Below are positions 4,465-62,053 of a stretch of 64,000 nucleotides of DNA, one piece after another. How positions within the stretch are numbered: position 1 is the stretch's first letter; each line of letters begins with the position of its first letter. The position numbers and the translations under genes were made by a program. The notes under the pieces are model-generated. The model did no database searches and was not told the DNA's origin. It was given only the letters and a program-made list of their open reading frames with translations. Source of the DNA: a virus (lineage: Duplodnaviria > Caudoviricetes); IMG/VR virus record IMGVR_UViG_3300005544_000001, positions 14,392-78,391 of that record, one strand, 5' to 3'.

Positions 4465-4610
4465 ACGGTTCAATCGGGTTTTCTACGGTCATGCGTTTAG
4501 AGCCGCAATGGTCCCTCCAAACACTTTGCACCCGCTGCCGTCTGGCGGCGATTTCAAATCAGCCGCGCTCTAACGTTCGGGAGTCGGGTGCTTTTCCAAA
4601 TGCGCAGAAC

Positions 4611-29884: not shown

Positions 29885-29885
29885 C

Positions 29886-32800
29886 ATGCCAGCCGTTTTT
29901 GTTGATGAGGAACCGCAGGCCCATTTCGTAGACGACGCAGGGCCAGCGGAGGGTCGCGCCAAGTTCCTGGAAGATCTGCCGGCGCCGACACCTCCACCCA
30001 TTCCCGTCGAGCAGATAAGGACGATCCTTGAACCTGGCGTCACAGAGGGTAAAAGCGCCGAACAGGCCGACATTGAAAGGGCCAACAAAATTGGGGCCCC
30101 GCAGGTCGAGCTGAACAAACAGTCTGCGCCGTTCAATCTGCGCGAGCACCTTACGCTGGCCCGGGAGCGGCCGAGTGACAAACTCCAGTACTGGGCGCAA
30201 CGGATCCCGTGGAGCCCCGCGGGTATCATTCAGCCATTGGAGGTGAAATCAGCGGCGGACCGTATTCAGGCCGGGATCGGAGAACCGAAGGATTTTGAGA
30301 AGCTGTCCGACTTCATTGTCTCGGCGGAGAGACAGCAGAACGCGGGAGTGATTAGCAAGGCCGTTGACATCGCCACTGCGCTGCCCGCTTTCGCTGCGGA
30401 ATTTTCAGCCACAGGCGGAGCGTTCACGGGGACCCGCGCGGCCGCACAAAGGGCAGGTCTTGCCGCCCTGGAAGAGTCCGCGAAAGCCGTTGCCGGAAAG
30501 GCCGCGCGCTACGTGGCAACGAAAGCTGCCGAGGCACCTGCATTTATTGCCGGTGCGGCTGCGCAAACTCTCGCCAACCCGAAGCTCATTGCTGAGAACT
30601 TTGTCCAGAACGAGCTGAATCGCGTGAAGTTTAAGGAAGGCGATCAGGGCCAGATTGAGACGATCATAAAGGACGACGACGTCGGCTTTGCCGGGAACCT
30701 GCGTAACTCTTTCCTGAAGGCCGGCTTTGACATCGGCACAGAATACGCGGGCGAACTCCTTCACCCACTCAAGGCGGCCATCGCTGCGCGGTGGATGAAT
30801 GCGGTGCCAGGGCGAACGCCTGGAGCACTTCAGAAGGCGCTTGATGCTAGCGGATGGCACGGGGTGCTGGGCGAAATGTTTGAGGAACGGTTGAACGAGT
30901 TTGCGGCACCGCTCTACGGCGAGAATTATCAACCACCAAGCCCTCAGCAGCTCATGGCTGAGGCGCTGGCTTTCAGCGTGCCAGGCACTGCTGAACGGCT
31001 TTTATCTGGCCGCGGGCCAGCTATCGAGAAAGGTAAACAAAATGCCACTACGCAAAGGCCCGAACAGCCACGGACACAACGTGGAGAAACTGATGCAGGA
31101 ATACAACCAGTCGGGGAAAATCGGGTCAACGCACCCGTCGAGCAGCCACCACGCACTCCGGATAGCGAACGCAATCGCGTACCGCCTGGAGAAGTCGCCC
31201 CGCAAGTCGAAACTCGGCCGGGGGCGCCGGTAACGACGAAGGCGCCGTTGGCTGTTCGCATCCTGACGGCTCGAGGTGTAGCGCCGGACGTCGCTGAATT
31301 TGTGGCCGCGCGCGCAGGCGACAAGCCTGCCAACGAGACGGCGGAGGATTACCGGACGCGCGTCAACGGGCTGCATGACGAGTTTGGATTCAAGGTCCCG
31401 ACCGAGGTAAACCCGGCCAGCAGCGAGGCGAGTCTCCGGGCGGCTGCTGCGGCCGAAGGATTCACCGAGGAACAGATCCAGAACACGCTCGCGAAAGCGA
31501 AGGCTGCCGATACCGCCGTTCACGCGGCGAACACGGCGCTTATCGGTCGGATTCAGGCGGCGCGACAGCCAGCGACAGTCACGCCTGAACCACCAAAGCC
31601 CCAGCGCGTGGACGTCCCTGGCGTCGGCGCCGTGAACATTCAATATCCGGCTGGTTCTGTCCGTTCCGGGGAGGACAAGGCCGGAGACAAGTGGCAGGTC
31701 ACGATGCCCGCGCACTACGGCGACATCGTTGGCACGAAGGGCAAGGACAAAGATCGCATCGACATCTATGTCGGGCCGAACGCCCAGGCGCCGGGACCGG
31801 TTTACGTCGTCAACCAGTACAATCCGGAAACTGGAAAGTTCGATGAGCACAAGGTGATGGCTGGCTTTCCGTCGTTGCCAGATGCCACGGCCGCCTACGA
31901 CGCGGCGTTTTCTGACGGGTCTGGACCTGCACGAAGGCAGTCCGTTCAGACATTCTCGCCGGAACAATTCCAGACGTGGCTGAAGGAAGGTGATCATTCG
32001 AAGCCGGCCGGCGGCGAGAGGATCGATTTGCAGCCGCCCCCGAAGCTCGTAACTAAGCCGGTCGCTCCTGCAACGAAACCACCAGTTCCTGAGACGAAAG
32101 CACCAATTCCTGCAACGATCCCTCCTGTTGGTGCAACAAAACCGCCTGTTGGTGAGACGCAAGCCCCGAAATCTGTAACGGGTGAGACACAACCGATTTC
32201 ACCGCCAGCCGCTCCACCGGCCGGTGCTCCACCCGTTGTGGATGTTACTGCCAAACCTAGCGCGACTCGGGCGCCGGAAGCGGCGGCGGTGACTCAGGCA
32301 AAGCTCGACGACATACGGAAGCGTCGCGAGGCGATTCAGGCAAAGTTGAGGAAGAAGCTGGGTCAGACCAACATCAGCGTTGATCCAGAGATCGCGACGC
32401 TCGTCGCTGAGCTGGCGGTCAACTACACCGAGGAGGGCGTCGTTCGTTTCGCCGATTTCGCGCGCCGGGTTAAGGAAGAGCTTCCGGACATCTGGGAGCG
32501 ACTCAAGCACTACCTGGGCGGCGCGTGGCGCACGGCGGGCGAGCAGAACATGGAATTGGACGAGGTAACCCGCGAGCAGGGCAAGGCTGCGATTCAGGCC
32601 CTCGAGGCTGAGACACCCCTCCCAAAAGAGGAAGGGGTCAAATCGCCAGAAGTCCAGCCCACCAAAAAGGAGGGCGAGGAGAATACCGAAGTCGGCATCA
32701 TCCAAGACGCGCATCGCGTTGCACAGAACGCTACCGATCCGCTACGGGCGTACCGCGAACTGGTGCGGCTTTACAGCGAGCAGCCCCGACTTGGCACCCG

Positions 32801-35800
32801 CACGGTCACGAGCAAGACCAATCAGGCTTACTCGACGCCCCCTCCGCTTGCCTACCTCGCCGGCCGACTGGCGGACTTGCGGAACGGAAAAGTAATCGCA
32901 GAGCCAACGGCAGGAAACGGGATGCTGCTGATTGAGACCAATCCTACGGCCAGGTTGCTTGCGAACGAACTTGACGCTGATCGGGCTGATCGGCTGCGCA
33001 AGAGCTTTCCGCGTGCAGACATCAGCCAGATGGACGCGTCCACCGAGGACTTCCACAACTACTTAGATGGATGGTCGCCAGACCGGGTGATCGCCAACCC
33101 GCCTTTTGGCGGCGTCATCGAGGAAGGAACCTCTCAGACAAAACGGTTCCCGATCATCAATGCCTCGACGAAGAAAGGCGAGACGCCAAGCATCGATCTG
33201 GCCATTGCCCTCAATTCTCTCGATGCAATGACGCAGGATGGCAAGGCAGTAATCATCATCGGCTCAAAGACCGGCAGCATGGCCGCTAACTTCGGCAGCG
33301 ATGCCGCCCGTGCCCAGGCTTACCGCAGGCCCGAGATGCTGGAATTTTTCCGTCGATTCAACGTCAAAGACTGGTTCACGGTCAGCGGGGATCTCTACAA
33401 GAAGATGGGCGCCGGTTGGCCTGTGGATGTTATTGTGATCGACGGAAAGACGCCCACGCCGTTGCCATCAGAAGGCGGGCTGCAACGTCCGTGGATTACG
33501 CCGCCGCCAGTTTTCAACTCGTGGCATGACCTGGAAGGGAAATTAAATGATGCTCAATTACAACCAACAAGAGAGCCTAGCCCGACGCCTGGCGGAAGCA
33601 GTGGTGCTGAAAGTGCTGGCGCAGGCCAGGGAGGACCCGCAGTCCGCCCTGGGGGAACTCAAAGCCCTCGTCCACCACTTGGAAACGAACCCACCGTTCC
33701 TGCGCCTGGACGACCTCAAGAGCCGACACGCCCTGGAATCCCAACTGGTAGGCCTGCCGTCGTTCCAGAGAGCCGTCCAGAACTTCCAACAGGAGGCGGT
33801 GGACTGGGACAAGCTTCCGCCGAAGGATCCGCTGAAATTAACCCGGGCATGGCGCGTTTGGTCGAGGGAAAGGTTGTTCTAAACGTCCCGTATCGATCGG
33901 TGTCGAAGAACGCCGATCCGAAATTGGTCGTGCCGGCGAACATAGCGGACTCCATGCAGCGTGCTGTGCGCCAGTTGGAAATCGACGTTGGCAAGCCGGT
34001 AGATGAATACCTCGCCGAGAAGATGAAGTGGACGCGCGAGGAACTATTTAAGCGATTATCCAGCGCACAGATCGAGGCGGTTGCGCTGTTCGTTCGGAAC
34101 TCTGAAAACCGCGGCACTGGATTGATCAACTCCGACCAGACAGGTGTAGGTAAAGGCCGAACGGTCGCAAGCGTGATGGACTACGCTCCGAAGGTCGGAA
34201 AGATTCCGATCTTCATCACCCAGGGAAAACATCTCTACACGGACATGGCGGGGCGCGACCTTCCAAGCATTGGGAACAAGAAGTTTAGACCATTTATCAC
34301 CGACTCTGATTACGAGTACGAGAACGGAGAGGGCACCAGTATTTCAGACAAGCCCGGCGCAGCAGCGCAACGTGAAGCCATGGAAGAGATCGCGCGCACC
34401 GGAAAGCTCCCGCCCGGCGTTCATGGCATATTCACGACCTACTACCAGTTGCAGGCGGACAAGCCACAGGGTTACAGCGAAACCCCGCAGGCGCGCGCAC
34501 GGCGCAAACGCAGGCTGACAGCCCGTCCTGACGGTCCCAGGTTGGCCATGCTGCGCGCGCTGGCTCCGAACGCGATCTTCGTGTTGGACGAGGCGCACCA
34601 AGCTGCGGGCATCGACTCGGACGTTGGTCTCTCGTTGCAATCCATCCTGCCGAATGCCGCCGGGGTCTATTACTCATCGGCGACATTCGCAAAGCGACCA
34701 GACAACCTGACTCTGTACGCAATCGGCACCGCTCTTCGGCTTGCTGGTTTGAGCCGCACTGAGATGACCGAGTTGTTCAAGAGCGGCGGTGTCCCGATGC
34801 AGCAGGCCTTGACATCGATGCTTGCCGAGGAAGGCGAATTCGTTCGCCGCGAACAGGATATGTCGGGCGTGAAATTCGACTTCACGCCAGTCAGCTCTTC
34901 GCCCGAGGAAGAGGCGCAATCTGCGGACACTTACACCAGTTTCCTGCGCGACCTGCACGACATCGCAGATCAGGTCAACGCCGCTGCTGCCGGTTTCGTC
35001 GATGACGTCAACCAGACGCGCCCGGACGAGGCGCAGGTTGATCTGTCCGGCGTAAACTTCGGTTCACGACTGTTCAACTTGTCGAACCAGTACCTGTTCA
35101 GCCTTCGGTCGGATGCCACGGCAAACGAGGCGATTGCCGCACTGAAACGCGGACAGAAACCGTTCGTCGCAGTGTTCAATACAATGGCCGGTCCGATAGC
35201 CAACCTGCACGAAATGGGTTTGCCTTTGGATTTCGGCGGTTTGTTGCGCCGGGAGATGGCGAAAATGCTGGAAGTCACAATTCGAGATCCGCTCGAAGAC
35301 TCCGGAAAGCGCGTCGTCATCCTGAAACCAGAAGACCTTCCAGACGGCGGAGCCAAGTACCGTCAAATCGAAGAGCAGATCAAGGCGACCGACTTCGGGT
35401 CCATGCCTATCTCTCCAATTGATGCGATCAAAAAGAAGATTCAGCAGGCAGGATATTCCATCGGCGAAATCACCGCGCGCGACGGTGAACTCACCGAAGA
35501 AGGCGGTGTCGTCAAAATTAGCAAGCGCGACCGCAGCACGCGCAACAGGATACTGCACGAGTACAACAATGCCGACGTAAAAGGCGGAAAGGCTGTCACT
35601 GGGCTGGATGCGCTAATTGTCAATGGCTCCGGAAGCACCGGGCTTTCCGCCCATACCGATCCAAAGTTCAGGGATCAGCGGCAGCGGTACATGATCGTCG
35701 CCCAGGCAGCACCCGACATCAACGTGTTCATGCAGATGATCGGTCGCGTAATGAGGTTCGGACAAACGAGCCTGCCGGCCTATAAGGTGCTGATGACGAA

Positions 35801-38800
35801 CCTCGCTGCAGAGAAACGGTTTATGACCATGCTTCGGGGCAAGCTCACGAGCCTGAATGCAAACACGTCCGCAGAGACAGAGAGCGGGATCACACAGGGC
35901 GGCTTGGCCGACGATGTGTTCAATGCAATCGGCGATGAGGTTGTCGGCGAGGTCATGTTGGCACACCCAGACTTGGCGCAGTTGGCGCGCATCCCGTTGC
36001 CGAACCCGATGGAAGCTGACAGTTTCGAGAACTTCGCGCGTTACGCGACCGGTAGATTCGTCCTCCTTCCGAATGACGATGCGGCTCGGTTGTGGCGGGA
36101 CATCTCAGAGATTTACGACGCCCGCATCCGCGCGCTAGACGAGGCAGGCGAAAACCCATTGAAAGCCAACGTGCAGGATCTGCGCGCGAAAACGACCGGT
36201 ATCGCGGAAATAGTTCCCGGCACTGGAAGCACCGCCTTCGACGGTCCAGTGAAGCTTGAGCGCATCGACATCAAGCCCGCAAAGAAGCCCTACACCCACG
36301 AGCAAGCTGTAGCCGAGTCAGAGAAGAACTCTGACGAGAACGAGAAGGCCGCAGAGGAATGGTTTGCCAAGCAAGCAACGGCCATGCGCGAGCGCATCGA
36401 AACGATGGAAAAGCGCGAAGCCAAACAGGAACAGATTGATCGCACTCGGCAGACATTGCAGGCCGTGTACGAGACGGTCACTGCGGCAAGTCGCCTGCTT
36501 GGCCAAACGGTCGGCGTGGATCCTGGAGGTACCGGGCACCCTCTGTTCTATGCAGTCCCAATCGCGCTCGAACTCAAATCTCGTGACCAAAGCGATTTTA
36601 GCTCGAACTCGAAGCACACGCTCAAGCTGGCGACAAACACGCTTCGGCGCACGATTCACCTACCCCTCTCGCAACTGAACAGCCTAAAGCTGGTCGAGGA
36701 ATCCGATCCTGCCGAACAGTTCGACAACAACAGCGAAAGTACGAGCACGCGCTACGTCGCCACCGGCAATCTGCTGAAAGGCTATGCCGCAGCAAAGGGG
36801 ATGTCGGCCCACATTACCAAGCCCGCGGTAACGATGTATTCCACTCGCCGCGGGGCGCTCAAGACGGGCGTGTTGCTCGGAGCCGCTTTTAATCCGAGTA
36901 CCGGCGTTGCTGGTGGACGCGCAGCGGTGAATAAGCCTGACGACTTCGCGACGCTGATGGATCGGCGGACGCCGATGGCCGCCGGTCCCGTTGAAATCAC
37001 CGGGACCATCGTCACCGTCCCGTCAGGCACCTCAACCAGGAACATTTGGGGCGACCGGACTTTTCAGAATTTCTTTCAGCAGAGTCCAGTTGAGCGAGCA
37101 GGCCAGTTTCGAGGCGTCATGGATCGTCGTATGGCCTTCGACTTCTTTCGCTACCTCGCGAGCAAGGGGTTGTCTATTGTCGAGAAACAGAGCGAGGGCA
37201 CCACTCGGGCGATCGAGTTTGCTGAGCCGCCGCCTGAAACCACGGCATCCGACGTCGCAAACAAGATCGCCGACGCCTTGGGGAATCTGAAGTCCGGCCA
37301 AGAACCAGGCCAACTTCACCTTTTCGGCGTCATTCCCGCCGTCTGGGACAAGGCGATCGAGATTGCCCAGGGCATCATCCGCGCCGGCGGCAAGGTGGCT
37401 GATGCGGTGGCAAAGGCCATCGAATACATCCGGGCAAACCACAAAGGCGACTGGGACGAGGCAGGCGCGCGCGGAGCGCTGGAGTCTGCGAGTCAGGGCA
37501 AGCCGGCCACGGAGGAAGGTCTTACTGAGCCAGCCGAAGGCGAACAACCGCCCGTCGTGGACGATCACTGGGTCCCGACGCAGGTCAAAGGCATGACGTG
37601 GTACGTGCGCGACCGGGACAAACTCTCCCCGGAGAGCACCGCGCGCTCAATCGATGCCGCGGAGGCTGCTTTCACGCAGGCTGGGCTCAAGTCCGAGCGC
37701 CGGACCATGTTCGACACGGGAGATAGCCAGACCAAAAGCATCCTGTTCATTCCGGAGACGGAGAATGCCGACGAGAAGGGGCGCAAACTGGCCGAGGTGC
37801 TCGAGCGCGAGATTGCGACCCAGCGGGAGGCCGGCAAGGGCGCCGACCACGTCTCGACCCTCATCAATTCCGTGCGGGAGGGCTTCGACCAGCCCGGATC
37901 CGCCTTCCGCCAGATGAGTCAGCAGGTCCGGAACCGACTGTTTGCGCTCGCCCAGGAGGAAGCGAGCTGGCGCGGCCGTGCCCTGCGTGCGCTGGCCAAC
38001 TCCAAAGCCGACATTATCCGCATCGCGCGCAATGTCGACGTCTACCTGCAGCGCATCTATTCGACGGCTTTTGCTGACAAGGCACCGGGCGCCCCCGCGG
38101 GCGCCAGCGACATCGCTGATGACCTGCGGGCGTCATTGCGCGAGGTCCTGACCGACGAGGAAATTGACCGACTGCCGGAACTCATCGCGGATCCAGCGCA
38201 GCGCGAGCGCATCAAGGCCGCGCTCAAAAAGGCGCTGGAAAAGGTGGCACCGAAAGGCGCTAAACGTTTTGGCCGCAGGAACTGGCGCACGATCGAATCT
38301 CTAATCCAGGGCGGCATCCTTGATGACACCGAATGGTTCAAGGAACTGGCGCGCAAACGGGGCTGGAAGGTCCCGACTGACGCCGAGATCGAACAGATGC
38401 GCAAGCTGGCCGACGAGGAGCAGGCGCTTCGAAAACCGACCGACGCCGAGCTGGCCAAGGTCGGAGAGGACCCGAAGGCGCGCGAACGGCTGTTGGCCGA
38501 CATCGAGGCGGCCACCAGGGAGACGCGGTTCAAGCTGCAGAAGCGCCTAGCGGTGATGTGGAGCGAGATGACGAAACCGGTTTCTCTACGGGACTATTGG
38601 GCGCAAAGGCAGAATAACGCCCGGTTCCTGAACGAGCTGATGACGGCCAACCTGCTGTTCCGGGCGTCGTTCGTCAGCAAGCAGGCTATCGACGTGGCGA
38701 CACAGTGGTTCTGGAGGATGCCCATGCGCGCCGTCGCACAGGCATTGACCCTGCGTAAGAACGATTTGGCCGCTGGCAAGCAGGTTCGATTCTGGGATGA

Positions 38801-40853
38801 CGCCCAAGCGGCGCTCAAGGACATCTACGGGGATTCCATCAAAAGCCTGAAGGTGGCGACTGCGAAGGCGCGCGCGGCGCTCGCCGGGCGGGTGGAGATC
38901 CGGAACGTGGATCGCCTCATGGGCAGCGTGTCGGCTCTGGACCGGCTGTGGCTGCGTGCGGACCGCGCGGCGGAGGACGGGCGCAACGCGGAGGCCTTTA
39001 TGTGGCGCGCCGTGGCTGCCATCGGCTTTTCGTACAAGGTCGCCGGGGCGTTCGATTATCTGCACGGGACGCCGGCCGAGTGGAATGAGCGCAGGTTCCG
39101 TGTCATCGAAGCCCTTCGCGAGACCGGTGTCGACGCCGCAGCCGCCCGAGTGCAGGCCGATTGGGTGATGGACGGCGCCCTGGCTGAATATCCCGAGGCG
39201 GTTGCCATGACGCGCTCGATGCTCGAAGCCCGGGGGATCCCGTTTACTGAACAGCAGTTGCGCGAGGACGCATGGAACATGGTCGAGCGCCGGCAATACC
39301 AGCGGATCGGCGATCTCGGGCTGCCCGTGGACGCCATCCGAGAACAGTCAGATCTCTACCGTAACACCTTGGGCTGGAACGAACGTGAAATGCGCGGGCC
39401 TGGCGGACTCGTCGGGACGCTCGTGCATGGCGTCGGCGCCATTGGGGAAGGAATCGGCATCCCTTTGGCCATGGGCCGGTTCGGCAACGCCATTGCGATC
39501 GGCATCAACCGGCAGTTGCACAAGACGCCGCTGTACGCACTGGCCAACATCCGCCTGCCGTTCCTCCGCGGTGGTCAGGAGTCGTCGCCGTGGTCACGGA
39601 CCATGACGGACATCTACGAGCGACGCCTCGAGGCTGTGGCCGGCACGATGCTCGGCAGCACCATGCTGACATTGGCTGCGGCTGGACTGCTGAAGGTCTG
39701 GCTGAAACCACCTCCCGATAAGGAGGAGCGCGAGCTGTGGGAGCGCGAAGGCCATAAGGCGGGCACGGTCGAGATCCCCATGGGCGACGGCAAGTATCAG
39801 GTCTGGAGCCTCACAGCGGGGCCGTTCGCGCTCGTGGCGCCCTATCTGGCGGCCGGTGGGGCAATCAACGACCTGACGGTCAAACGCGAGAAACAGCAGG
39901 CCAAGCTCAATGCCGAGGCGGCGAAGAAGGGGCTGACACCGGCCCAACTGCCCCCGCCGGACATCTCGGACTGGTTTGGGGTGGCCGCCCAAGCTGCCCA
40001 AGCATCGGTCCTCGGCAATCGAACGGCCTCCGGCTGGTTCAACAGCATCACTGACTACGGCACGCCCAACGTGAAGAAGTTCGTGGCCAGCCAATTCACG
40101 CCCATGGTGCCCGGATTGCCGGCGCTGCAGGAGGTTTCCCGCATGGCCGGCGTCATAATCGACCCGAAAAAGGCCGATGTCATGGATTTCCTGGTGCCGC
40201 TGCCGACGTCCAAGGCGCGAAAATACAACATGCTCGGGGATCCCGTGGGTACCCAGGACGACCTGCAGCGCGTCGTCCAGACGCTCACGGGCGGCACGTA
40301 CCCGTCGATCTCGCCGGGCCAGGCGCACGAGGCGGACGCCTACAAGGCGCTCTTCGCCACCGGTTACAGGCCTCCGAGCATCGACCCGAACGCGGGCCAT
40401 GCCATCGGCGGGGACTTCAGGCCGTTCACGGAGTCAGAACTCGAGCGCTACACCGCGGCGCGCAGCCGGAATCTGCGCGAGGAACTCGGCCGGCTGGGCC
40501 CCACGGCTGACGCCAAGGACGCCCGGGAGGCTTACCAGCGCGCGAACGACGCAGCGCTGCGGGAGACTGGAGTCACGGTCGCCACCAGGACGACAACGCC
40601 CAGCGGCGCCACGGTCACGAGGGCAGCGTCGTCCCGTGGAGGCGTGGGAGTTCCGACCAGGACGACGGAAGCCCGAAGTGGGACCGGCGGCAGGGCAGCG
40701 CGCGGGTTGTCACGCGGGCTGCGTGGAGTGCGATTTGGACGGCGGGGACTGGCCAGAGCTTCGAGGATTCGGCTGCAACCGCGTCTTGGGCGTGGACGTG
40801 CCCGCGGGTTGCGCGGATTGTCGCGCGCGCGGGTCAGTTCTGCTCGGGTTTGA
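29886..40853 (+). CDS. Giant polyvalent internal virion protein (DarB-like): pyrophosphatase-like, N6-adenine MTase and Strawberry-notch helicase domains
   Basis: ATG 29886; 3655 aa. HYGDIVGT.GKDKDRIDIY...DEHKVM (~31.7 kb); EPTAGNG and NPPF (~32.9-33.1 kb); DQTGVGKGR (34134), DEAH (34587), QMIGRVMR (~35.7 kb). Confidence 0.88.
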   Translation: MPAVFVDEEPQAHFVDDAGPAEGRAKFLEDLPAPTPPPIPVEQIRTILEPGVTEGKSAEQADIERANKIGAPQVELNKQSAPFNLREHLTLARERPSDKLQYWAQRIPWSPAGIIQPLEVKSAADRIQAGIGEPKDFEKLSDFIVSAERQQNAGVISKAVDIATALPAFAAEFSATGGAFTGTRAAAQRAGLAALEESAKAVAGKAARYVATKAAEAPAFIAGAAAQTLANPKLIAENFVQNELNRVKFKEGDQGQIETIIKDDDVGFAGNLRNSFLKAGFDIGTEYAGELLHPLKAAIAARWMNAVPGRTPGALQKALDASGWHGVLGEMFEERLNEFAAPLYGENYQPPSPQQLMAEALAFSVPGTAERLLSGRGPAIEKGKQNATTQRPEQPRTQRGETDAGIQPVGENRVNAPVEQPPRTPDSERNRVPPGEVAPQVETRPGAPVTTKAPLAVRILTARGVAPDVAEFVAARAGDKPANETAEDYRTRVNGLHDEFGFKVPTEVNPASSEASLRAAAAAEGFTEEQIQNTLAKAKAADTAVHAANTALIGRIQAARQPATVTPEPPKPQRVDVPGVGAVNIQYPAGSVRSGEDKAGDKWQVTMPAHYGDIVGTKGKDKDRIDIYVGPNAQAPGPVYVVNQYNPETGKFDEHKVMAGFPSLPDATAAYDAAFSDGSGPARRQSVQTFSPEQFQTWLKEGDHSKPAGGERIDLQPPPKLVTKPVAPATKPPVPETKAPIPATIPPVGATKPPVGETQAPKSVTGETQPISPPAAPPAGAPPVVDVTAKPSATRAPEAAAVTQAKLDDIRKRREAIQAKLRKKLGQTNISVDPEIATLVAELAVNYTEEGVVRFADFARRVKEELPDIWERLKHYLGGAWRTAGEQNMELDEVTREQGKAAIQALEAETPLPKEEGVKSPEVQPTKKEGEENTEVGIIQDAHRVAQNATDPLRAYRELVRLYSEQPRLGTRTVTSKTNQAYSTPPPLAYLAGRLADLRNGKVIAEPTAGNGMLLIETNPTARLLANELDADRADRLRKSFPRADISQMDASTEDFHNYLDGWSPDRVIANPPFGGVIEEGTSQTKRFPIINASTKKGETPSIDLAIALNSLDAMTQDGKAVIIIGSKTGSMAANFGSDAARAQAYRRPEMLEFFRRFNVKDWFTVSGDLYKKMGAGWPVDVIVIDGKTPTPLPSEGGLQRPWITPPPVFNSWHDLEGKLNDAQLQPTREPSPTPGGSSGAESAGAGQGGPAVRPGGTQSPRPPLGNEPTVPAPGRPQEPTRPGIPTGRPAVVPESRPELPTGGGGLGQASAEGSAEINPGMARLVEGKVVLNVPYRSVSKNADPKLVVPANIADSMQRAVRQLEIDVGKPVDEYLAEKMKWTREELFKRLSSAQIEAVALFVRNSENRGTGLINSDQTGVGKGRTVASVMDYAPKVGKIPIFITQGKHLYTDMAGRDLPSIGNKKFRPFITDSDYEYENGEGTSISDKPGAAAQREAMEEIARTGKLPPGVHGIFTTYYQLQADKPQGYSETPQARARRKRRLTARPDGPRLAMLRALAPNAIFVLDEAHQAAGIDSDVGLSLQSILPNAAGVYYSSATFAKRPDNLTLYAIGTALRLAGLSRTEMTELFKSGGVPMQQALTSMLAEEGEFVRREQDMSGVKFDFTPVSSSPEEEAQSADTYTSFLRDLHDIADQVNAAAAGFVDDVNQTRPDEAQVDLSGVNFGSRLFNLSNQYLFSLRSDATANEAIAALKRGQKPFVAVFNTMAGPIANLHEMGLPLDFGGLLRREMAKMLEVTIRDPLEDSGKRVVILKPEDLPDGGAKYRQIEEQIKATDFGSMPISPIDAIKKKIQQAGYSIGEITARDGELTEEGGVVKISKRDRSTRNRILHEYNNADVKGGKAVTGLDALIVNGSGSTGLSAHTDPKFRDQRQRYMIVAQAAPDINVFMQMIGRVMRFGQTSLPAYKVLMTNLAAEKRFMTMLRGKLTSLNANTSAETESGITQGGLADDVFNAIGDEVVGEVMLAHPDLAQLARIPLPNPMEADSFENFARYATGRFVLLPNDDAARLWRDISEIYDARIRALDEAGENPLKANVQDLRAKTTGIAEIVPGTGSTAFDGPVKLERIDIKPAKKPYTHEQAVAESEKNSDENEKAAEEWFAKQATAMRERIETMEKREAKQEQIDRTRQTLQAVYETVTAASRLLGQTVGVDPGGTGHPLFYAVPIALELKSRDQSDFSSNSKHTLKLATNTLRRTIHLPLSQLNSLKLVEESDPAEQFDNNSESTSTRYVATGNLLKGYAAAKGMSAHITKPAVTMYSTRRGALKTGVLLGAAFNPSTGVAGGRAAVNKPDDFATLMDRRTPMAAGPVEITGTIVTVPSGTSTRNIWGDRTFQNFFQQSPVERAGQFRGVMDRRMAFDFFRYLASKGLSIVEKQSEGTTRAIEFAEPPPETTASDVANKIADALGNLKSGQEPGQLHLFGVIPAVWDKAIEIAQGIIRAGGKVADAVAKAIEYIRANHKGDWDEAGARGALESASQGKPATEEGLTEPAEGEQPPVVDDHWVPTQVKGMTWYVRDRDKLSPESTARSIDAAEAAFTQAGLKSERRTMFDTGDSQTKSILFIPETENADEKGRKLAEVLEREIATQREAGKGADHVSTLINSVREGFDQPGSAFRQMSQQVRNRLFALAQEEASWRGRALRALANSKADIIRIARNVDVYLQRIYSTAFADKAPGAPAGASDIADDLRASLREVLTDEEIDRLPELIADPAQRERIKAALKKALEKVAPKGAKRFGRRNWRTIESLIQGGILDDTEWFKELARKRGWKVPTDAEIEQMRKLADEEQALRKPTDAELAKVGEDPKARERLLADIEAATRETRFKLQKRLAVMWSEMTKPVSLRDYWAQRQNNARFLNELMTANLLFRASFVSKQAIDVATQWFWRMPMRAVAQALTLRKNDLAAGKQVRFWDDAQAALKDIYGDSIKSLKVATAKARAALAGRVEIRNVDRLMGSVSALDRLWLRADRAAEDGRNAEAFMWRAVAAIGFSYKVAGAFDYLHGTPAEWNERRFRVIEALRETGVDAAAARVQADWVMDGALAEYPEAVAMTRSMLEARGIPFTEQQLREDAWNMVERRQYQRIGDLGLPVDAIREQSDLYRNTLGWNEREMRGPGGLVGTLVHGVGAIGEGIGIPLAMGRFGNAIAIGINRQLHKTPLYALANIRLPFLRGGQESSPWSRTMTDIYERRLEAVAGTMLGSTMLTLAAAGLLKVWLKPPPDKEERELWEREGHKAGTVEIPMGDGKYQVWSLTAGPFALVAPYLAAGGAINDLTVKREKQQAKLNAEAAKKGLTPAQLPPPDISDWFGVAAQAAQASVLGNRTASGWFNSITDYGTPNVKKFVASQFTPMVPGLPALQEVSRMAGVIIDPKKADVMDFLVPLPTSKARKYNMLGDPVGTQDDLQRVVQTLTGGTYPSISPGQAHEADAYKALFATGYRPPSIDPNAGHAIGGDFRPFTESELERYTAARSRNLREELGRLGPTADAKDAREAYQRANDAALRETGVTVATRTTTPSGATVTRAASSRGGVGVPTRTTEARSGTGGRAARGLSRGLRGVRFGRRGLARASRIRLQPRLGRGRARGLRGLSRARVSSARV

Positions 40854-42123: not shown

Positions 42124-42791
42124 GATAGCCTCCTGAACGAAATCACGTACACGAAAGGATTCGCCGCCCACGAACAGCCCTTGCGGGGAAGATTGATCAT
42201 GTTCCAGCCGGAAGCCCACAAAACTTTGTGGCTCTGGTAAACTTTCTGATCAAATGCCGACACTGGGTTGTTGCCAAATTTGTCGCTGTGCATCCGCAGG
42301 ACCGCACCCTCGCGGTGAACGGCGTTCTTTGTGATGTCTTGAAGGCGCTCGACTTGAACGGCTTCGATTTGCAGTGTGATACGACAGGCTTCACGCGGCA
42401 TGAATAAGGACGGCTTCCATTTGCACTTCTCATCATCTGGGAGATTGAAGTTTGCTCGATAGAGGTAATGGTCGGGAATTCCAGTCGAAATCCCAGTAGC
42501 TTTTTCCCACGCCCAAGCATCGAACCATGTTTCCCTCACCCAGATTGTTGCGCCGGGCTGATACTTTGTCGCAACTCGTATGGCCTTGAGCATTGACGCC
42601 TGATCGGTGTGGACGTATGGCGCTCCGTAGCCAAGACGTTGCAGAACCTTGCCGCCATGCCACTCCCATGAGTCGCCGCTTGCACCAGTAAATTGCGGCA
42701 GCGGCATGACAACCCTACGGGTTTCCGTCTTTCGTCCTTCCAGAATCGCGTTCACCATCGGCGCGGAGAAAAGCATGGGGATCTCGTTCAT
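42120..42791 (-). CDS. ASCH/PUA-like conserved phage protein
   Basis: PMLFSAPMVNAILEGRKTETRR, IWVRETW, WKPSLFMPREACRI, WAANPFV. Confidence 0.8.
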   Translation of the reverse strand: MNEIPMLFSAPMVNAILEGRKTETRRVVMPLPQFTGASGDSWEWHGGKVLQRLGYGAPYVHTDQASMLKAIRVATKYQPGATIWVRETWFDAWAWEKATGISTGIPDHYLYRANFNLPDDEKCKWKPSLFMPREACRITLQIEAVQVERLQDITKNAVHREGAVLRMHSDKFGNNPVSAFDQKVYQSHKVLWASGWNMINLPRKGCSWAANPFVYVISFRRLS

Positions 42792-43621
42792 GCGATGGCC
42801 GCGCGTTTGTCTTCCAAACTGACATGGCTGTAGGACTGGAGCACTCGAAGAGATTGACCGGTGATCGAGCGCACGACGGAAATCGGAACACCTTTGTTGA
42901 GCAGGTTCGACACCCGGCCGTGGCGAATGTGGTGGATGGACTTGTTCACCCCGGCTTTGCGCGAAAGCTTGATGAACTCAGCACTCAGAGTCTTGTGCTG
43001 ATCATACGCGTGCTTCTGCGCCATGGTCGGGCACACGAACGATTGATCCCCCTCGACGCACGGTGGCGTGTCGCGCATCGCGTGGACCAGTTCGAGGCTG
43101 ATCGGGATCTCGACGAGCTTGCCGAAGCGCTGCGTCTTGATCGGCACCCTTCGGATGACGCACTCGACGATGCTGACCTCGTGCCAGCGCAACGTGGCGA
43201 CGTCGCCCAGGCGGAGCCCGGTCTCCCACGCACAAAGGATCGCGTAAACCCAATCGCGGCGCCCATCGGCCCGGGCTTGCGCCAGCAGCTTCGTGATCTC
43301 CTCCGCCGTGATAGGCTGCCGCTCGACGGTCGGGATCGCGAATCGTTTCAGCTTCGGGACCGGGTTCGCATCGACGACCCCGGCCTCGATGAGCCAGGCG
43401 AACAGCGCCTGAACGGTTGAATAATATGCGGCTGCCGTTCGTCTGCCGCGGCCGGTCTTGAGCAGGTGCCCGAGAAAGGATTTGCAGACCAGCGCGGTGA
43501 TCGGTTTCTGGCCGGCGAACTTCGCGAACACCTCGAGGCGCTCACGGTAGGCGCGGATTGTGGAGTCAGACAAAAGCCCGGTCTGCGCCTCGAGGAAAGT
43601 TTGGATGCGCTCGCGAATCAT
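42788..43621 (-). CDS. Tyrosine recombinase/integrase (short, XerC/D-like)
   Basis: TGLRLGD, KT, HHIRH, ITGQS...SYSH; 277 aa with no arm-binding domain. Confidence 0.88.
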   Translation of the reverse strand: MIRERIQTFLEAQTGLLSDSTIRAYRERLEVFAKFAGQKPITALVCKSFLGHLLKTGRGRRTAAAYYSTVQALFAWLIEAGVVDANPVPKLKRFAIPTVERQPITAEEITKLLAQARADGRRDWVYAILCAWETGLRLGDVATLRWHEVSIVECVIRRVPIKTQRFGKLVEIPISLELVHAMRDTPPCVEGDQSFVCPTMAQKHAYDQHKTLSAEFIKLSRKAGVNKSIHHIRHGRVSNLLNKGVPISVVRSITGQSLRVLQSYSHVSLEDKRAAIA

Positions 43622-43818
43622 TTGTTGGTGATGGTGATTTCGATGCGCTCGCCATTCGTTGGCTTTCCGGAAATCTGGACAAAGGTATTTGTTCCCACGA
43701 GTACGATGTTCTTCGCCTTCTCCCTGTAATAATCAATTCGGTGCTTGATGTAGAAAACCTGGCTGACGATGACCAGAAGCAGGACGCAAAGTTTCAATGT
43801 CAGGAGTTTTTCTTTCAT
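43618..43818 (-). CDS. Small membrane protein
   Basis: N-terminal hydrophobic helix. Confidence 0.55.
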   Translation of the reverse strand: MKEKLLTLKLCVLLLVIVSQVFYIKHRIDYYREKAKNIVLVGTNTFVQISGKPTNGERIEITITNK

Positions 43819-43822
43819 GGAT

Positions 43823-44380
43823 TCACGCGGTTTCTAAAAATCCCTTTAACTTTTCAATCCTTTTCGGGTGGCGAAGCAGTGACAATCCTTTGTTAAAAAT
43901 CTGCCTGGCCCGCGCTCCGGTTACTCCCAGCGTTTTCCCAGCAGACTCGACTGTTGCGCCGTTGGCAATTTCCCACAGTGCTTCCTTGTTCCGATCCGGT
44001 ATGTCCGACATGGCGGCATCAAGGGCGTCCTTTTCCTCTAATAGCGTATCTGGTGCTTGAAGTAATAACGCCTCAGGACAATCCAGCAGATTTTCAAGCT
44101 GCACATCTGCGGTCTGCTCTCTTTTGAAGCCCGACCTCAGCCCGCGAAATGTTTCCGGCCATTGCTCCAGCACATCAAGGTATTCTCCTGCTTCACCGAA
44201 AGCGATCTGGATCGCGGTTGCTTGCTTTGGCGTTGGGCGCTGAACCAAGTTTACGATTTTACCGATTATATACGGAGTCACCTTTGAACGCCGCGCCAAT
44301 TCCTTTTGGGACCAACCAAGTTTCTGCAACAACTGGTACAGAAGCCCGTGCTTGTATTTCGTTATCGCAGTGATTTGCAT
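43823..44380 (-). CDS. XRE-family HTH regulator with C-terminal sigma70 region 4-like HTH
   Basis: GWSQKELARRSKV...IGKI; TVESAGKTLGVTGARARQIFNKGL..LRHP. Confidence 0.8.
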   Translation of the reverse strand: MQITAITKYKHGLLYQLLQKLGWSQKELARRSKVTPYIIGKIVNLVQRPTPKQATAIQIAFGEAGEYLDVLEQWPETFRGLRSGFKREQTADVQLENLLDCPEALLLQAPDTLLEEKDALDAAMSDIPDRNKEALWEIANGATVESAGKTLGVTGARARQIFNKGLSLLRHPKRIEKLKGFLETA

Positions 44381-44422: not shown

Positions 44423-45316
44423 TCAGACTTCAGCCGCGCTCTTAACCTGATGGACGAGCCTCCTGCCATTGCGCAGCATCGCAAGCCGTTCCTCCTCGGT
44501 CGTGATTGAATCCGAGTAACCGCTGAACACGCTGGGCAAGTTGGCGATCACGCTGTAGCTGTCGGCGCCGAACTTGTCCCAGATGCGGCAACCGATCTCG
44601 ACGTCCCATGCGCGGGACTCCTTCGCGACGCTCGTGACGTGGAACCCATCGCCATCTGGAAGCGCTGCCTGCGGTTGGCGCGATACGACGCCGAACGTGC
44701 CGAACTGATGATCCTGCGGTCCCTTGGCCAGTGGCGCCCGCTCGCCTTCTGTGAACAGCTTGCGATACCATGCACAGTCGATGACGGTCCCGCTCCCGTA
44801 GCAGAACACGCAGGAATCCTGTCGATCATTCGAGCCCTTGTTGCCGAACGCCAGGACAGGGACGTGCATGTGCGTCGCGACCGGGTAGTTCCTGCGCGAA
44901 TTGTTCGCGACGAGTTCCTCCCAGCGCAGTGCGGCCTCGCGACCGGCCGTGCAGGGGTTGTGGACTGCGACCGACCCGCCGATGATTGCCGGCATTGGCT
45001 GGCGGAAATACTCGTCGAAGATCGCGCCGTCCCAGTTGTCGCCCATGACGCGGGAATCAGCCTCGAGGTAGAGGACGTGCGAGTAACCGGCGCGCAACGC
45101 CATCTCCATCCCCGTGAAAAAAATGAGGTTCGAGACGCTGAACGATTTATCGCCTTTCACGCTCTCTGGATTGCCGGGGATGCGTTTGACGTCCGGCCAG
45201 GCATGGTCGGAGAACAGGAGCAGCTCGTGCGTTGTCTTGAATTTGCGGATGTTCCGCAGAAAAGGCTCGGCGTATGGCAGGACTGGCGGCGGTACGTAGG
45301 CCAACACCGCCCTCAC
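44423..45316 (-). CDS. Putative GT-A-like protein
   Basis: GTG 45316; HVLYLEADSRV resembles a DxD-containing strand. Confidence 0.5.
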   Translation of the reverse strand: MRAVLAYVPPPVLPYAEPFLRNIRKFKTTHELLLFSDHAWPDVKRIPGNPESVKGDKSFSVSNLIFFTGMEMALRAGYSHVLYLEADSRVMGDNWDGAIFDEYFRQPMPAIIGGSVAVHNPCTAGREAALRWEELVANNSRRNYPVATHMHVPVLAFGNKGSNDRQDSCVFCYGSGTVIDCAWYRKLFTEGERAPLAKGPQDHQFGTFGVVSRQPQAALPDGDGFHVTSVAKESRAWDVEIGCRIWDKFGADSYSVIANLPSVFSGYSDSITTEEERLAMLRNGRRLVHQVKSAAEV

Positions 45317-45582
45317 AGCTTGCCCTCCTGCTTCTCGATCTTCACCTTGACCATCCACGCGTGAAACTCGTTGGTGATTCCACCCTCAACCCAGCGGATG
45401 AGATAGCAGTCGTTCGTGTGCAGGACGGCATCAATGCAGTTGGTCATCTCCCAAGCGTTGGGGCCGTCGCCGACCGTGACGGTGTAGAAAACTGTCTTCG
45501 CTGGCCGATGACGCAGAAGCGAAATGCCGGAGCACGCCGCAATAAACACGAGCGCAATGATGAGGATGTGGTTGCGATTCAT
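45313..45582 (-). CDS. Small membrane-anchored protein
   Basis: ATG 45582; MNRNHILIIALVFIAACSGISLL. Confidence 0.6.
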   Translation of the reverse strand: MNRNHILIIALVFIAACSGISLLRHRPAKTVFYTVTVGDGPNAWEMTNCIDAVLHTNDCYLIRWVEGGITNEFHAWMVKVKIEKQEGKL

Positions 45583-47254: not shown

Positions 47255-47363
47255 GGTGGCGAAAGTAGGATGGACTCTGCGGCGCAGGCAAGGGTAATCT
47301 CGGGGCATGAACCATCCAGGTTTTAAAGCGGCAGCCCGATCGATCGCACGACGTGAAGGTTAC

Positions 47364-47696
47364 TCACTCAGCCGGGCCAACAGGATTCTGGCTGCAGGTG
47401 CCCGCGGTGCCAGCAAGGCTGCCGTTCGGCGCAATCCCAGGCTGCTGCGGGTCCGCCGCGGTCGGCGATAGCGTGAACTCGACGGGGAACTTGTATTGCT
47501 CGGACTTCCCTTCCCACGCGGTGTAGGCGCCGACGCCGCGGGCGACGAGCGCCTCGACGGTCGTGGTGCCGAACCATTTCGAGTAGGTGAGAACCTTCTT
47601 TGCCCAGAACCCGCCCGGGTGACGGATGAGTTTCCCGTCGTTGGTGCGCGCGAAGTCGATCGCGTCGCGCATGGTCTTCGAGAGTTTCGGAGTCAT
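47364..47696 (-). CDS. Hypothetical protein
   Basis: ATG 47696 overlapping upstream stop. Confidence 0.55.
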   Translation of the reverse strand: MTPKLSKTMRDAIDFARTNDGKLIRHPGGFWAKKVLTYSKWFGTTTVEALVARGVGAYTAWEGKSEQYKFPVEFTLSPTAADPQQPGIAPNGSLAGTAGTCSQNPVGPAE

Positions 47697-48691
47697 GCTG
47701 ATGCAAGTTGCCCGATTTTCTGGATCGGAAACTGTTTGATGTTCCAAACGCCGTCAGGAAGTCGTCCCTGCCGACCGTCGTACATCGAGCAATCCTGTTT
47801 CACGTAGCAAGGAACGACCGCGATTGCGCACTGAGCCGCAATGTCGATAATCGCCTCTGCCCCGCAATCACGCCTATTCGCGCCACTCTCGCCGCCAACG
47901 ATCACCCAGTCTACTTTCGGTCCGCGGGAAGGTTCTTTGCCAAGCGCCGTATAATCGCAGTGCGGAACATGCACGGGACTGCCTGTCCAATCCCAGCAGA
48001 GCCCCATGCCGTCGTCGTGGCCTTTGTTAGCGGACAGATCAACCTCTTCCAAGAGTGGCTCAACGCTCAGAAATCGAACGGCCGCCGGCGTCGCCAGCAA
48101 CTGAGGGATCCTCTCGTTGGCTCGCTTCTGATCTTCAACAGAGACGCCGAGCCAGAGGTTTGGCGGCGGGATCGGATTTGTCTTTCGCGTCCAGCGAACG
48201 ATCATGTCCATGGCTGCGCGCGCTGTGTCCCATGCAGCCATGACGCGCTCTTCCCAAAGCTCGATGCGCTTCGTTAGCATGAGCACGTCCACGTTCGGAG
48301 CGTCGTTGATGGCGCCCAGACAATCCGCCAGCGTCTCGGGCATCCACGCACGATCCAGCCAATCGGAGTTGCTGTCGGCGAACAAACGGATCCTGCGGAA
48401 CAGTCCTCCGCATTCGCAAACACCGCGCAGAACGAGTCGAGCAAACGGCGCTGTCTCTCCGCACAGGTCGCAGATGCAAAGCTTGTTCAGCCGGCGGATC
48501 TTCTTGGCGAACTCAGCCACTGGATACCGCGTTGCGTTTGGTCCCCAAGTCTCGATTCCGCGGTGACGCAGCACTCGAGCGCGCGTCCCTACTTGGGCGT
48601 AACAGTTCTTGCAACCAGGGCTCACCTTGTCACAGCCAGTCACGGCATTGGTCGTATCATCGCACCAGCCTATCGGATTCGTGAGTTTCAT
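47693..48691 (-). CDS. DUF5131 (phage Gp37/Gp68) family protein
   Basis: IGWCD.T.N.VTGCDKVSPGCKNCYA, LTKR, NLWLGVSVEDQ, RFLSVEPLL, DWVIVGGESG. Confidence 0.92.
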   Translation of the reverse strand: MKLTNPIGWCDDTTNAVTGCDKVSPGCKNCYAQVGTRARVLRHRGIETWGPNATRYPVAEFAKKIRRLNKLCICDLCGETAPFARLVLRGVCECGGLFRRIRLFADSNSDWLDRAWMPETLADCLGAINDAPNVDVLMLTKRIELWEERVMAAWDTARAAMDMIVRWTRKTNPIPPPNLWLGVSVEDQKRANERIPQLLATPAAVRFLSVEPLLEEVDLSANKGHDDGMGLCWDWTGSPVHVPHCDYTALGKEPSRGPKVDWVIVGGESGANRRDCGAEAIIDIAAQCAIAVVPCYVKQDCSMYDGRQGRLPDGVWNIKQFPIQKIGQLASA

Positions 48692-48948
48692 GCGCTCGCC
48701 CTTTTCCCGTTCATCAGTTCAACGATCTCGCGTGATGTCATCTCGATCGCCCCGTTCTTGATCGCCTCGGTCCGCTTGCTCAGGCACACGTCGAAGTGCT
48801 CCTTGCTTGTGCCCTTTTTCTGGAGCCACCGGTGCGCCACGCCTATCTTCGTCGCCATAGCCAAAAGTTCCTCCGTCGTGTCGGCCGCCATGTGGCACAT
48901 CTGCATCCGCCCGAATCGCGCCCGGAAATCGTCCACGTAGACACTCAT
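48688..48948 (-). CDS. DUF4031 family protein
   Basis: MSVYVDD...MCHMAADTTEELLAMA.KIG...WLQ...HFDV...KR..AI..GA. Confidence 0.88.
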   Translation of the reverse strand: MSVYVDDFRARFGRMQMCHMAADTTEELLAMATKIGVAHRWLQKKGTSKEHFDVCLSKRTEAIKNGAIEMTSREIVELMNGKRASA

Positions 48949-60128: not shown

Positions 60129-60406
60129 CGTTACGTCGCTGAGTCTTGCAGGACGCACGATTGGGTGTATTTACCCAATTCCGGGCCAGTTGGGTGTATT
60201 CACCCACCTACAATCCGGTTGCGTATCGGTCCCATACGCAGCAATCGTTGCCGTTGCAGCGATTTCCGTCGATTCCGGCCAGATTTCGGCCTGGCGGCTC
60301 GATTCCAGGACGACCGCCACCCCATAGCGGGGGTTCCCCGGGGGTGTCGAAGACGGATACGTATGTCCCCATGCGACCCTCAATTGGATTTTGAAAAGGG
60401 TGGTGG

Positions 60407-61167: not shown

Positions 61168-61340
61168 GCAGGCCGGGCGCTACGCCGGCTGCATCCTCCC
61201 AAAGTTGCACCGTGTGGCCTTTCGGCTTGCAGGATGGAGGGTGCGGATTGCCTTGCGGTGCTCTCTGCCCGTCTGCTTTCCGGGCTGCTGCTCAAAATTG
61301 GACGGAGGCCCGGCGCTCCCAGGGCAGATGGGCAGGGGGC
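61165..61340 (+). ncRNA. Putative structured RNA with crossing helices
   Basis: Helices 61165-61171/61288-61294, 61191-61199/61236-61244 and a 16-bp helix 61261-61276/61324-61339; G-U pairs fit only the + strand. Confidence 0.5.
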
Positions 61341-61503
61341 TGGCGTGTTACTCCGTCGATCCCGATGCGACGACGGACTCCGGTACGGCTGAAAATGGGG
61401 CCGGTTCGATGTAAAACGACGGCACGCATTACCCAGCGTGTTGACCCGTCGCCCACTAAATCGCGGATGCACCGGCAAGCACCATGTCTCGTTTTTAGGA
61501 AAA

Positions 61504-61633
61504 TGGTGGACAGGCCCGGAGTCGAACCGGGGCGCCAGATCCTCTGGTAGCGATCCAGAGGTGGCTGCAACAGCATCAGAGCAACCCATGGAGCCTGATG
61601 CCATTGCCTCGTTTTCCAAACGCTGACCTGCCC
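61504..61633 (-). ncRNA. 130-nt tRNA/tmRNA-like RNA with alanine identity elements
   Basis: Acceptor GGGCAGG/CCUGUCC with G3-U70, A73 and encoded CCA; T-arm CCCGG-UUCGACU-CCGGG; no canonical anticodon arm. Confidence 0.75.
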
Positions 61634-62053
61634 GTGAAATCTCCCGTCTGGCGGTTATCCGCCTCGCAGGCCTGACGGGGAGCCTGAATGCCGCCGTGGG
61701 ATCTGCACTGCCCGTGGCGGGCTTGGTCTTTTTGTTGGGCGACCGTGTTAACTGCTGACGATCCGACGCGCTTTTGGGTTCAGGTGCAGCCTGCATCACC
61801 GGAGTCCCGCGACCCTCCCCGGCTCCATTATCTTGACCGTCAGCCCGTTCGCCCTGGTTTGATAAGATGAATTCTTCCGACAATCCGAAAGGAGGTGGGG
61901 ATGGGGAATCCCGCTGAAGTCGAAGATGCCGGAAGAAAATGGCCCCAGTCGCGTTTTTAACCGCCACGCCTGTTCCTGCTATCGCTTGCCTGGACTCCGC
62001 GGCCGCGGCTGCCAGGTAGTTCGACGCCTCAGAACTTCGACCGGGGATCAAAT

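Follow-up and report, generated by a model that had tools for sequence, protein, structure and literature searches.

A conserved, probably alanine-chargeable tRNA look-alike without an anticodon in a phage genome

The minus strand of a phage genome from IMG/VR carries a 130-nt RNA gene whose product is a tRNA look-alike, with the top half of a class II tRNA and no anticodon. The gene is conserved and structure-constrained, and it is an accessory gene that recurs in its phage group in different shapes and places. We favour, though only tentatively, the reading that it specifies an accessory, processed and probably alanine-chargeable mimic of the tRNA top half, which most likely acts as a decoy or competitor.

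Genomic setting

The window, by which we mean the whole stretch of DNA analysed, covers the final 64 kb of the genome of an uncultured phage from IMG/VR; this genome measures 78,391 bp, has terminal repeats of 110 bp and is rated complete. Virion, glycan and tail genes lie on the plus strand of the window, and replication, recombination and small genes on the minus strand from about 41.5 kb to the end, including DnaB, AAA_23, PDDEXK and HNH; a XerC/D-size tyrosine recombinase with an HTH_3 repressor-like neighbour is found at 42788-44380. The RNA gene occupies an accessory slot of mosaic character, within a noncoding gap, and lies at the 3' end of a minus-strand operon of small genes (62.0-64.0 kb). 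The element and the 8 kb around it have no DNA similarity to known phages, ARAGORN calls zero tRNAs and zero tmRNAs in the whole phage genome, and no Rfam family is found there at gathering score. Among the phage genes there is no SmpB, no reverse transcriptase, no Ro60 (TROVE), no RtcB and no tRNA-repair partner pointing to a pathway.

Elsewhere in the window, a 3677-aa ORF (29820-40853, plus strand) combines an inorganic pyrophosphatase domain with a Strawberry-notch-type helicase and a weak N6-methylase match, and it could be a DarB-like injected anti-restriction protein. The idea of an N4-like phage was dropped, as this ORF is an InPase/Strawberry-notch helicase/methylase and not a virion RNA polymerase.

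Structure of the RNA

The features of the gene and its flanks, all on the minus strand, are as follows.

61504..61633, minus: whole tRNA-like RNA gene, 130 nt, with G1 at 61633 and the 3' A of the encoded ACCA at 61504
61627..61633, minus: 5' strand of the acceptor stem, GGGCAGG (containing G3 of G3-U70), identical in the homologue L233
61610..61622, minus: D-like hairpin CGUUU-GGA-AAACG, from the fold, kept in L233
61567..61607, minus: central arm of 41 nt, a 13-bp stem with a 15-nt structured tip at the anticodon-arm position, from the fold
61534..61565, minus: long bulged 'variable' arm of 4 + 7 bp with a 7-nt loop, from the fold and the comparison with L233
61515..61531, minus: T arm CCCGG-UUCGACU-CCGGG, with the same stem and one loop change in L233
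61504..61514, minus: 3' strand of the acceptor stem, CCUGUCC (containing U70), discriminator A73 and encoded CCA, from the sequence and L233
61643..61679, minus: GC-rich leader hairpin directly before the RNA, with AGAUUUCAC between it and G1, from sequence and fold
61413..61451, minus: terminator-like hairpin with a U run, some 50 nt beyond the CCA on the 3' side, from the sequence

The original prediction, made from the letters of the window, described an RNA on the minus strand running from GGGCAGG to CCUGUCC-ACCA, with G3-U70, A73 and a perfect T arm, and the sequence bears out each of these points. The minimum free energy (MFE) fold of the 130 nt (-63.7 kcal/mol, z = -4.0; 0 of 200 shuffles fold as well) also has the overall shape that had been described, with two small corrections to the hairpins: the small hairpin has the stem CGUU(U)/(A)AACG and a GG in its loop, and the 7-bp helix CCUCUGG/CCAGAGG rests on a stem of four more pairs (GCCA/UGGC), so that a bulged arm of 11 bp occupies the variable-arm position. 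The same tRNA-like module is contained in the MFE structure of the surrounding 891 nt. Since G-U pairs occur at 3:70, 31:63 and 32:62, the RNA strand is the minus strand. The GG in the loop of the D-like hairpin could make an elbow contact with the T loop, and the leader hairpin may have a role in processing or termination. When the 78-kb genome was subjected to 300 dinucleotide shuffles, a perfect 7-bp acceptor together with a 5-bp T stem, the T-loop consensus and NCCA arose by chance in 2% of the shuffles, and in 0.3% once G3-U70 and A73 were added.

In tRNA terms, the molecule is a class II cloverleaf in which the 17-nt anticodon arm has become a 41-nt arm. A 7-bp acceptor, a 5-bp T stem, a T loop of the form UUCRANY and N73-CCA are all present as in canonical tRNAs. 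A canonical anticodon arm (5-bp stem, 7-nt loop, U33, R37) is absent, as had been claimed, the 13-bp stem and its 15-nt tip standing in its place; the central arm has no 7-nt anticodon loop, so the RNA cannot decode, and no unspliced anticodon arm is present in either the window copy or the L233 copy. The central arm is the hypervariable part of the RNA, and no antisense target for it was found in the phage genome.

An explanation as a standard or intron-containing tRNA, named in the original prediction as an outcome that would count against it, found no support from either program or model. There is no ARAGORN call, Rfam is silent at gathering score and locally also at E<=10, and the tRNA model RF00005 has no match at E<=10 in 601 nt. 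An enumeration of possible excisions returned only off-register sub-stems of the long helix in the window copy and none in L233, so that no canonical arm is restored in both copies. A GOLLD/ROOL-like large noncoding RNA was rejected as well, as the 3.1-kb noncoding region has no Rfam match and the 891-nt fold is no better than shuffles.

Conservation in a close relative

A long-range pattern search found one homologue, on an 8.9-kb contig (L233) from a soil or rhizosphere metagenome. This contig is a mosaic close relative of the window phage, some of its genes being 99-100% identical and others 60-85%, and it spans the genome ends, so that phage DNA flanks the element on both sides. The L233 copy (4860-4988, 129 nt) can be aligned with the window element over its full length, and the two are 84% identical apart from the central arm. 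The acceptor stem, ACCA, the UUU trailer, the D-like hairpin with its GGAAAA loop, the GCAGCCACC junction, both variable-arm stems and the T arm are kept, and two flanking changes extend the stem of the D-like hairpin to 6 bp in L233. The main evidence for selection on structure is the contrast between paired and unpaired positions outside the central arm, of which 3/54 and 13/35 differ, respectively (Fisher p = 3.5e-4); the formal covariation test is weak with only two sequences, 59 of 500 shuffles doing as well as the three double changes observed. The paired differences consist of a U-A to C-G double change and a neighbouring C-G to U-G change, and all of these positions stay paired, whereas the loop and bulge of the variable arm differ freely. 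The central arm of L233 is of unrelated sequence (40 vs 41 nt), with only its two closing base pairs unchanged, and it forms a poor helix, in which 7 of 13 stem positions pair against about 5 by chance. A covariance model built from the two copies (R1) scores 151.8 and 149.6 bits on them.

An ORF of 304 aa overlaps the RNA gene on the same strand. This ORF belongs to no PHROG family and has a junk-like composition, the indels relative to L233 are of 1-3 nt and not multiples of three, and the mismatches show no codon phase; the gene is therefore non-coding. The flanks differ between the two phages. At the same place 5' of its copy, L233 has a different GC-rich hairpin followed by AGAUUUUC, and the terminator-like hairpin of the window lies within a 107-nt stretch that is missing from L233. 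L233 also carries, on the same strand as its element copy and 290 nt upstream of it, a tRNA(CAU) called by ARAGORN (4497-4570, plus strand). This tRNA is slightly aberrant, its D loop being 4 nt long and its acceptor containing one mismatch; the window phage has a 107-aa ORF at that place.

Three further blocks in the neighbourhood are conserved. The noncoding block at 61863-61940 (L233:4571-4650; L259:10480-10561, on a further relative described below) forms a long hairpin, in the stem of which L259 differs by two double compensatory changes (UUCUUCCG/CGGAAGAA vs UUCGGCCG/CGGCCGGA), and its loop contains, on the minus strand, an invariant CCCCACCUCCUUU that resembles the 3' tail of 16S rRNA. 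Its plus strand reads AAAGGAGGUGGGG followed by an ATG at 61901 (19-aa ORF); this start codon is CTG in L259, which makes the micro-ORF doubtful. The noncoding block at 61293-61394 (L233:4989-5091), located 3' of the element, has a hairpin with a compensatory change (CGUCG/CGACG vs CGUUG/CAACG); it abuts the CCA directly in L233, and in the window the 107-nt insert with the terminator-like hairpin lies between. The block at 60160-60382, especially 60161-60218, holds two tandem operator-like palindromes, TTGGGTGTATTNACCCAA, and is 76-83% conserved in L233 and L259 even though the flanking genes differ.

Distribution among other relatives

L259, a 78-kb Logan contig with a neighbour protein that is 82% identical, keeps the conserved flanking blocks; a 144-aa ORF occupies its slot, and R1 finds no match. 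Nine further, more distant contigs likewise have no R1 match, the further contigs having been fetched through homologues of the 145-aa neighbour (ten contigs, none with an R1 match), and the element is also absent from two distant fragments, L002 and L003, given by the neighbour-protein searches. The exact 3' 29-mer and 25-mer are absent from IMG/VR and GTDB genomes, the 25-nt 3' end occurring in 0 of 185,579 species genomes, and a pattern of the D-like hairpin and variable-arm junction has no match in IMG/VR.

An analogue was found in G001, a complete 80-kb phage with 30-60% amino acid identity and a rearranged gene order. This RNA, of 152 nt, has the acceptor GGGCGGG/CCUGUCC-ACCA and sits at a different genome position; the acceptor, D and T arms are recognised by the Rfam tRNA model (31.5 bits), with 92 nt in place of the anticodon arm. 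It is wedged between an FtsK-gamma-domain coding region and a homologue of the 311-aa gene of the window (44423-45358), on the same strand as both neighbours, with no spacer and with the frame open across it. Thus a single 464-aa frame (L011:11287-12681, equal to G001 47301-48695) runs from FtsK-gamma through the 152-nt RNA into the homologue of the 311-aa gene; here the RNA either separates two cistrons or is a gene lodged within a linker. The lack of the element in L259 and the distant contigs and the different location of the G001 analogue are the grounds on which we regard the gene as accessory. Every search for relatives demanded U70, and the retention of G3-U70 is thus not independent of the search.

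Origin from tRNA-Tyr and alanine identity

Among canonical tRNAs of IMG/VR, 70 have the 3' strand CCUGUCC-ACCA, and 53 of these 70 are tRNA-Tyr with GGACAGG; the same tRNA-Tyr acceptor occurs in Sphingomonadales and other Alphaproteobacteria. The element differs from this acceptor by one transition, A3 to G3, and has a long variable arm, as tRNA-Tyr does. The shared CCUGUCC-A73-CCA and variable arm make both a tRNA-Tyr ancestor and an alphaproteobacterial host plausible inferences; a tRNA-Tyr was probably the evolutionary source of the element. Compared with class II tRNA-Tyr, the element shares 13 of 14 acceptor bases, the discriminator, the encoded CCA, the T-loop consensus and the long variable arm, but it differs in having G3, no GUA anticodon loop, a non-canonical D arm and a much longer variable arm, and it obtains no score with the tRNA covariance model. 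Drift from tRNA-Tyr (in the style of A1 to G3) would give a G-U pair as well.

AlaRS needs only an acceptor helix with G3-U70. The bacterial alanine identity set comprises A73, G2-C71, G3-U70, G4-C69 and G20 (PMC9976931). The alanine identity that had been assigned to the element holds in part: G3-U70, A73 and G2-C71 are present, but G4-C69 is replaced by C4-G69, and G20 could not be mapped onto the element. Since three of the four acceptor-end determinants are in place, including the dominant G3-U70, alanine charging is likely, perhaps at a sub-optimal level, and on these sequence determinants the element is probably alanine-chargeable.

Comparison with known RNAs

The nearest described object is the species 1 RNA of phage T4 (rnaC, 139 nt), which together with species 2 RNA (rnaD) makes up the small stable RNAs of the T4 tRNA cluster. 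Like the element, rnaC is a phage-encoded stable RNA of the ~130-140 nt class, with an acceptor-like terminal stem, a canonical T arm (CCGGG-UUCGAAU-CCCGG), long internal hairpins (z = -4.6 when folded), no anticodon arm and no call by tRNA finders. Unlike the element, it has A3-U70, a mismatched terminal stem and no encoded CCA; there is no homology between the two in sequence or model (R1 misses rnaC), and rnaC sits within a tRNA cluster, whereas the window phage has no tRNA at all. We know of no function for T4 rnaC.

The tRNA-like domain of tmRNA (RF00023, RF01849-51, RF04321, RF02544) shares with the element G3-U70, A73, the UCCACCA end, the T arm and a longer helix in place of the anticodon arm, and on sequence grounds both would be expected to be AlaRS substrates. 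The element differs by its lack of an mRNA-like domain, tag frame and pseudoknots and by the presence of a D-like stem and a long variable arm. Bacterial tmRNAs measure about 260 nt or more, against 130 nt here. The acceptor/T/D geometry of tRNA is also copied without decoding, as a means of recruiting tRNA enzymes, in YrlA-type Y RNAs (RF02553), in mascRNA and in viral TLS. In YrlA, however, the tRNA module is internal and permuted and occurs with a Ro60-binding helix and a Ro60 gene, whereas the element has tRNA-like ends; a Y RNA was rejected, there being no RF02553 match to the element and no TROVE gene in the phage.

Other RNAs came to light in the course of the pattern searches. On other IMG/VR phage contigs there are RNAs of 58-152 nt with G3-U70, A73, encoded CCA, a T arm and a non-canonical body (L011, L014/L044, L021, L056, L049/L075, L072, L121, L126, L140, L152, L169, L176, L178, L206, L209 and L100/L131/L204). 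Several of them lie within tRNA clusters, and two (L021, L056) barely exceed an alanine minihelix with one extra hairpin. In a pattern-selected set, G3-U70 occurs in 8/8 intact elements uncalled by ARAGORN vs 1/70 canonical tRNAs, and in an unselected set in 6/58 uncalled vs 22/772 (3.9-fold, p = 0.01), an enrichment to be taken as a lead only, both sets being biased by the way they were fetched. Phage contigs also carry Rfam-detected tmRNAs, permuted two-piece and standard (L134:2365-2796, L197:4985-5448, L152:1829-2161).

A family of soil genes of 127-139 nt with the form GGGCAGG...CCUGUCCACCA (L258, L210, L211, L214, L229, L232, L234, L238, L244) was considered as a group of relatives and rejected. 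These are in fact Bathyarchaeota tRNA-Ala(CGC) genes with two inserts, hairpins in the D loop and after position 38, and are unrelated to the phage RNA; one member lies on a Bathyarchaeota MAG, and three (L210, L234, L238) adjoin LigD and/or Ku NHEJ genes. Most other matches to the long pattern are ordinary tRNA-Tyr genes with a chance GGGC upstream.

Proposed role and alternative explanations

Conservation falls on exactly the region that RNase P, CCA enzymes, AlaRS and EF-Tu recognise, and the decoding end is unconstrained. The mechanism that we infer from established tRNA biology would begin with transcription on the minus strand, at the end of the operon. RNase P would cleave at G1, reading the 12-bp acceptor/T stack and the RCCA end, the 3' end would be trimmed back to the encoded CCA, and a stable tRNA-like molecule of ~130 nt would accumulate, which the host AlaRS would probably charge with alanine. 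The conservation of the top half alone, the dispensability of the gene and the tRNA-Tyr-like acceptor and variable arm point to a decoy or competitor, most likely for a host factor that reads acceptor, elbow or variable-arm features. The leading, though conjectural, candidate for this target would be a tRNA-targeting anti-phage nuclease or modifier. [quoted passage not shown]

Several other explanations have to be weighed against this one. It is rather unlikely that the gene is a decaying relic of a phage class II tRNA, probably tRNA-Tyr, whose anticodon arm was destroyed and which has no present function. The acceptor only one transition away from that of tRNA-Tyr, A73, the long variable arm, the tRNA-gene slot with the tRNA(CAU) of L233 just upstream, the dispensability evident from L259 and the lack of any other tRNA in the phage would all suit decay, but none of the five helices is imperfect in either copy, few substitutions fall on paired positions and those that do are compensatory, the length and closing pairs of the central arm, the CCA and the UUU trailer are kept, and G001, a distant relative, retains an analogous long RNA. 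We consider it equally improbable that the element is a mark for processing or stability, at which a transcript is cut by RNase P and trimming enzymes or an mRNA 3' end is protected, the released RNA being without a role. Such tRNA-shaped processing marks are known from mascRNA on MALAT1 and from tRNA punctuation, and the location at an operon 3' end followed by a terminator-like hairpin agrees with this, as does the spacer-less position of the G001 analogue between the FtsK-gamma region and the homologue of the 311-aa gene. For RNase P, however, the acceptor/T stack is enough, and yet G3-U70, the encoded CCA, the D-like hairpin and the foot of the variable arm are conserved as well; moreover, L259 manages without the element at the same junction. 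A natural tRNA scaffold that stabilises the central hairpin as the active protein-binding or antisense module, with cargos differing among relatives, is less probable still. The central arm has indeed been swapped, at preserved length, between otherwise 84%-identical copies, yet the presumed cargo is the least conserved part and the scaffold is conserved in sequence, the phage genome offers no complementary target, and the arm of L233 pairs little better than by chance.

The original prediction had framed the RNA as a mini-tmRNA, and G3-U70, A73, the UCCACCA end and the long helix at the anticodon-arm place would suit a tmRNA in miniature, or a decoy of tmRNA, acting on SmpB and stalled ribosomes; tag-less reduced tmRNAs do occur in jakobid mitochondria. 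We rejected this reading and consider it very improbable. Neither ARAGORN nor the Rfam tmRNA, alpha, beta, cyano, permuted and mt models give a match (none even at E<=10), while the same Rfam library at gathering score detects the phage tmRNAs in the controls L134, L197 and L152. Pseudoknots and a tmRNA-type helix 2 are missing from the element, its D-like stem and long variable arm have no counterpart in tmRNA, and the phage genes do not include SmpB. No reading frame is common to both homologues, either: the frame started by GCA has no stop, and the sole stop-terminated frame, GNGIRLHGLL, lies inside the 13-bp stem, the equivalent region of L233 being of unrelated sequence that would read AEKGS. 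We attach almost no weight to the last alternative, that the element is an attP site or a copy of a host tRNA gene used for integration. The tyrosine recombinase and HTH_3 gene at 42788-44380 could suggest it, and many IMG/VR matches to the 3' motif are 3' fragments of tRNA-Tyr at prophage ends (e.g., L051). But, in line with the earlier claim that the element is not merely an att remnant, the recombinase lies at a distance of 18 kb, both strands of the full structure are kept with compensatory changes, the 25-nt 3' end is absent from the species genomes, the T loop differs between the window and L233, and L233 has phage genes on both sides of its copy and across the genome ends.

Meaning of the finding

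Phage tRNAs act as weapons against tRNA-cutting host nucleases. An RNA that no longer decodes but still has the enzyme-recognition half and the alanine mark would be a tool of another sort, a mimic and nothing more. Full-text searches of the literature turned up no account of phage tRNA mimics of alanine type without an anticodon. A wider reading, which we consider possible but doubtful, is that the element belongs to an undescribed, widespread class of phage-encoded, alanine-chargeable top-half mimics that serve as counter-defence decoys or sponges or as hijackers of AlaRS or EF-Tu. As so read, the members of this class would have a conserved core of acceptor, elbow and variable arm with a swappable arm for the anticodon, and they might be directed, e.g., at nucleases whose cleavage sites are class II variable arms or acceptor ends. 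The several independent IMG/VR RNAs listed above and the G3-U70 enrichment are leads in this direction.

Genes of this type are invisible to ARAGORN, tRNA covariance models and Rfam and are consequently missed in phage annotations; a dedicated model would show how common they are. If the RNA is charged and stable, it would mean that phages exploit the anticodon-independent rule of AlaRS, and it would provide a handle on the host factor that reads the top half of tRNA during infection.
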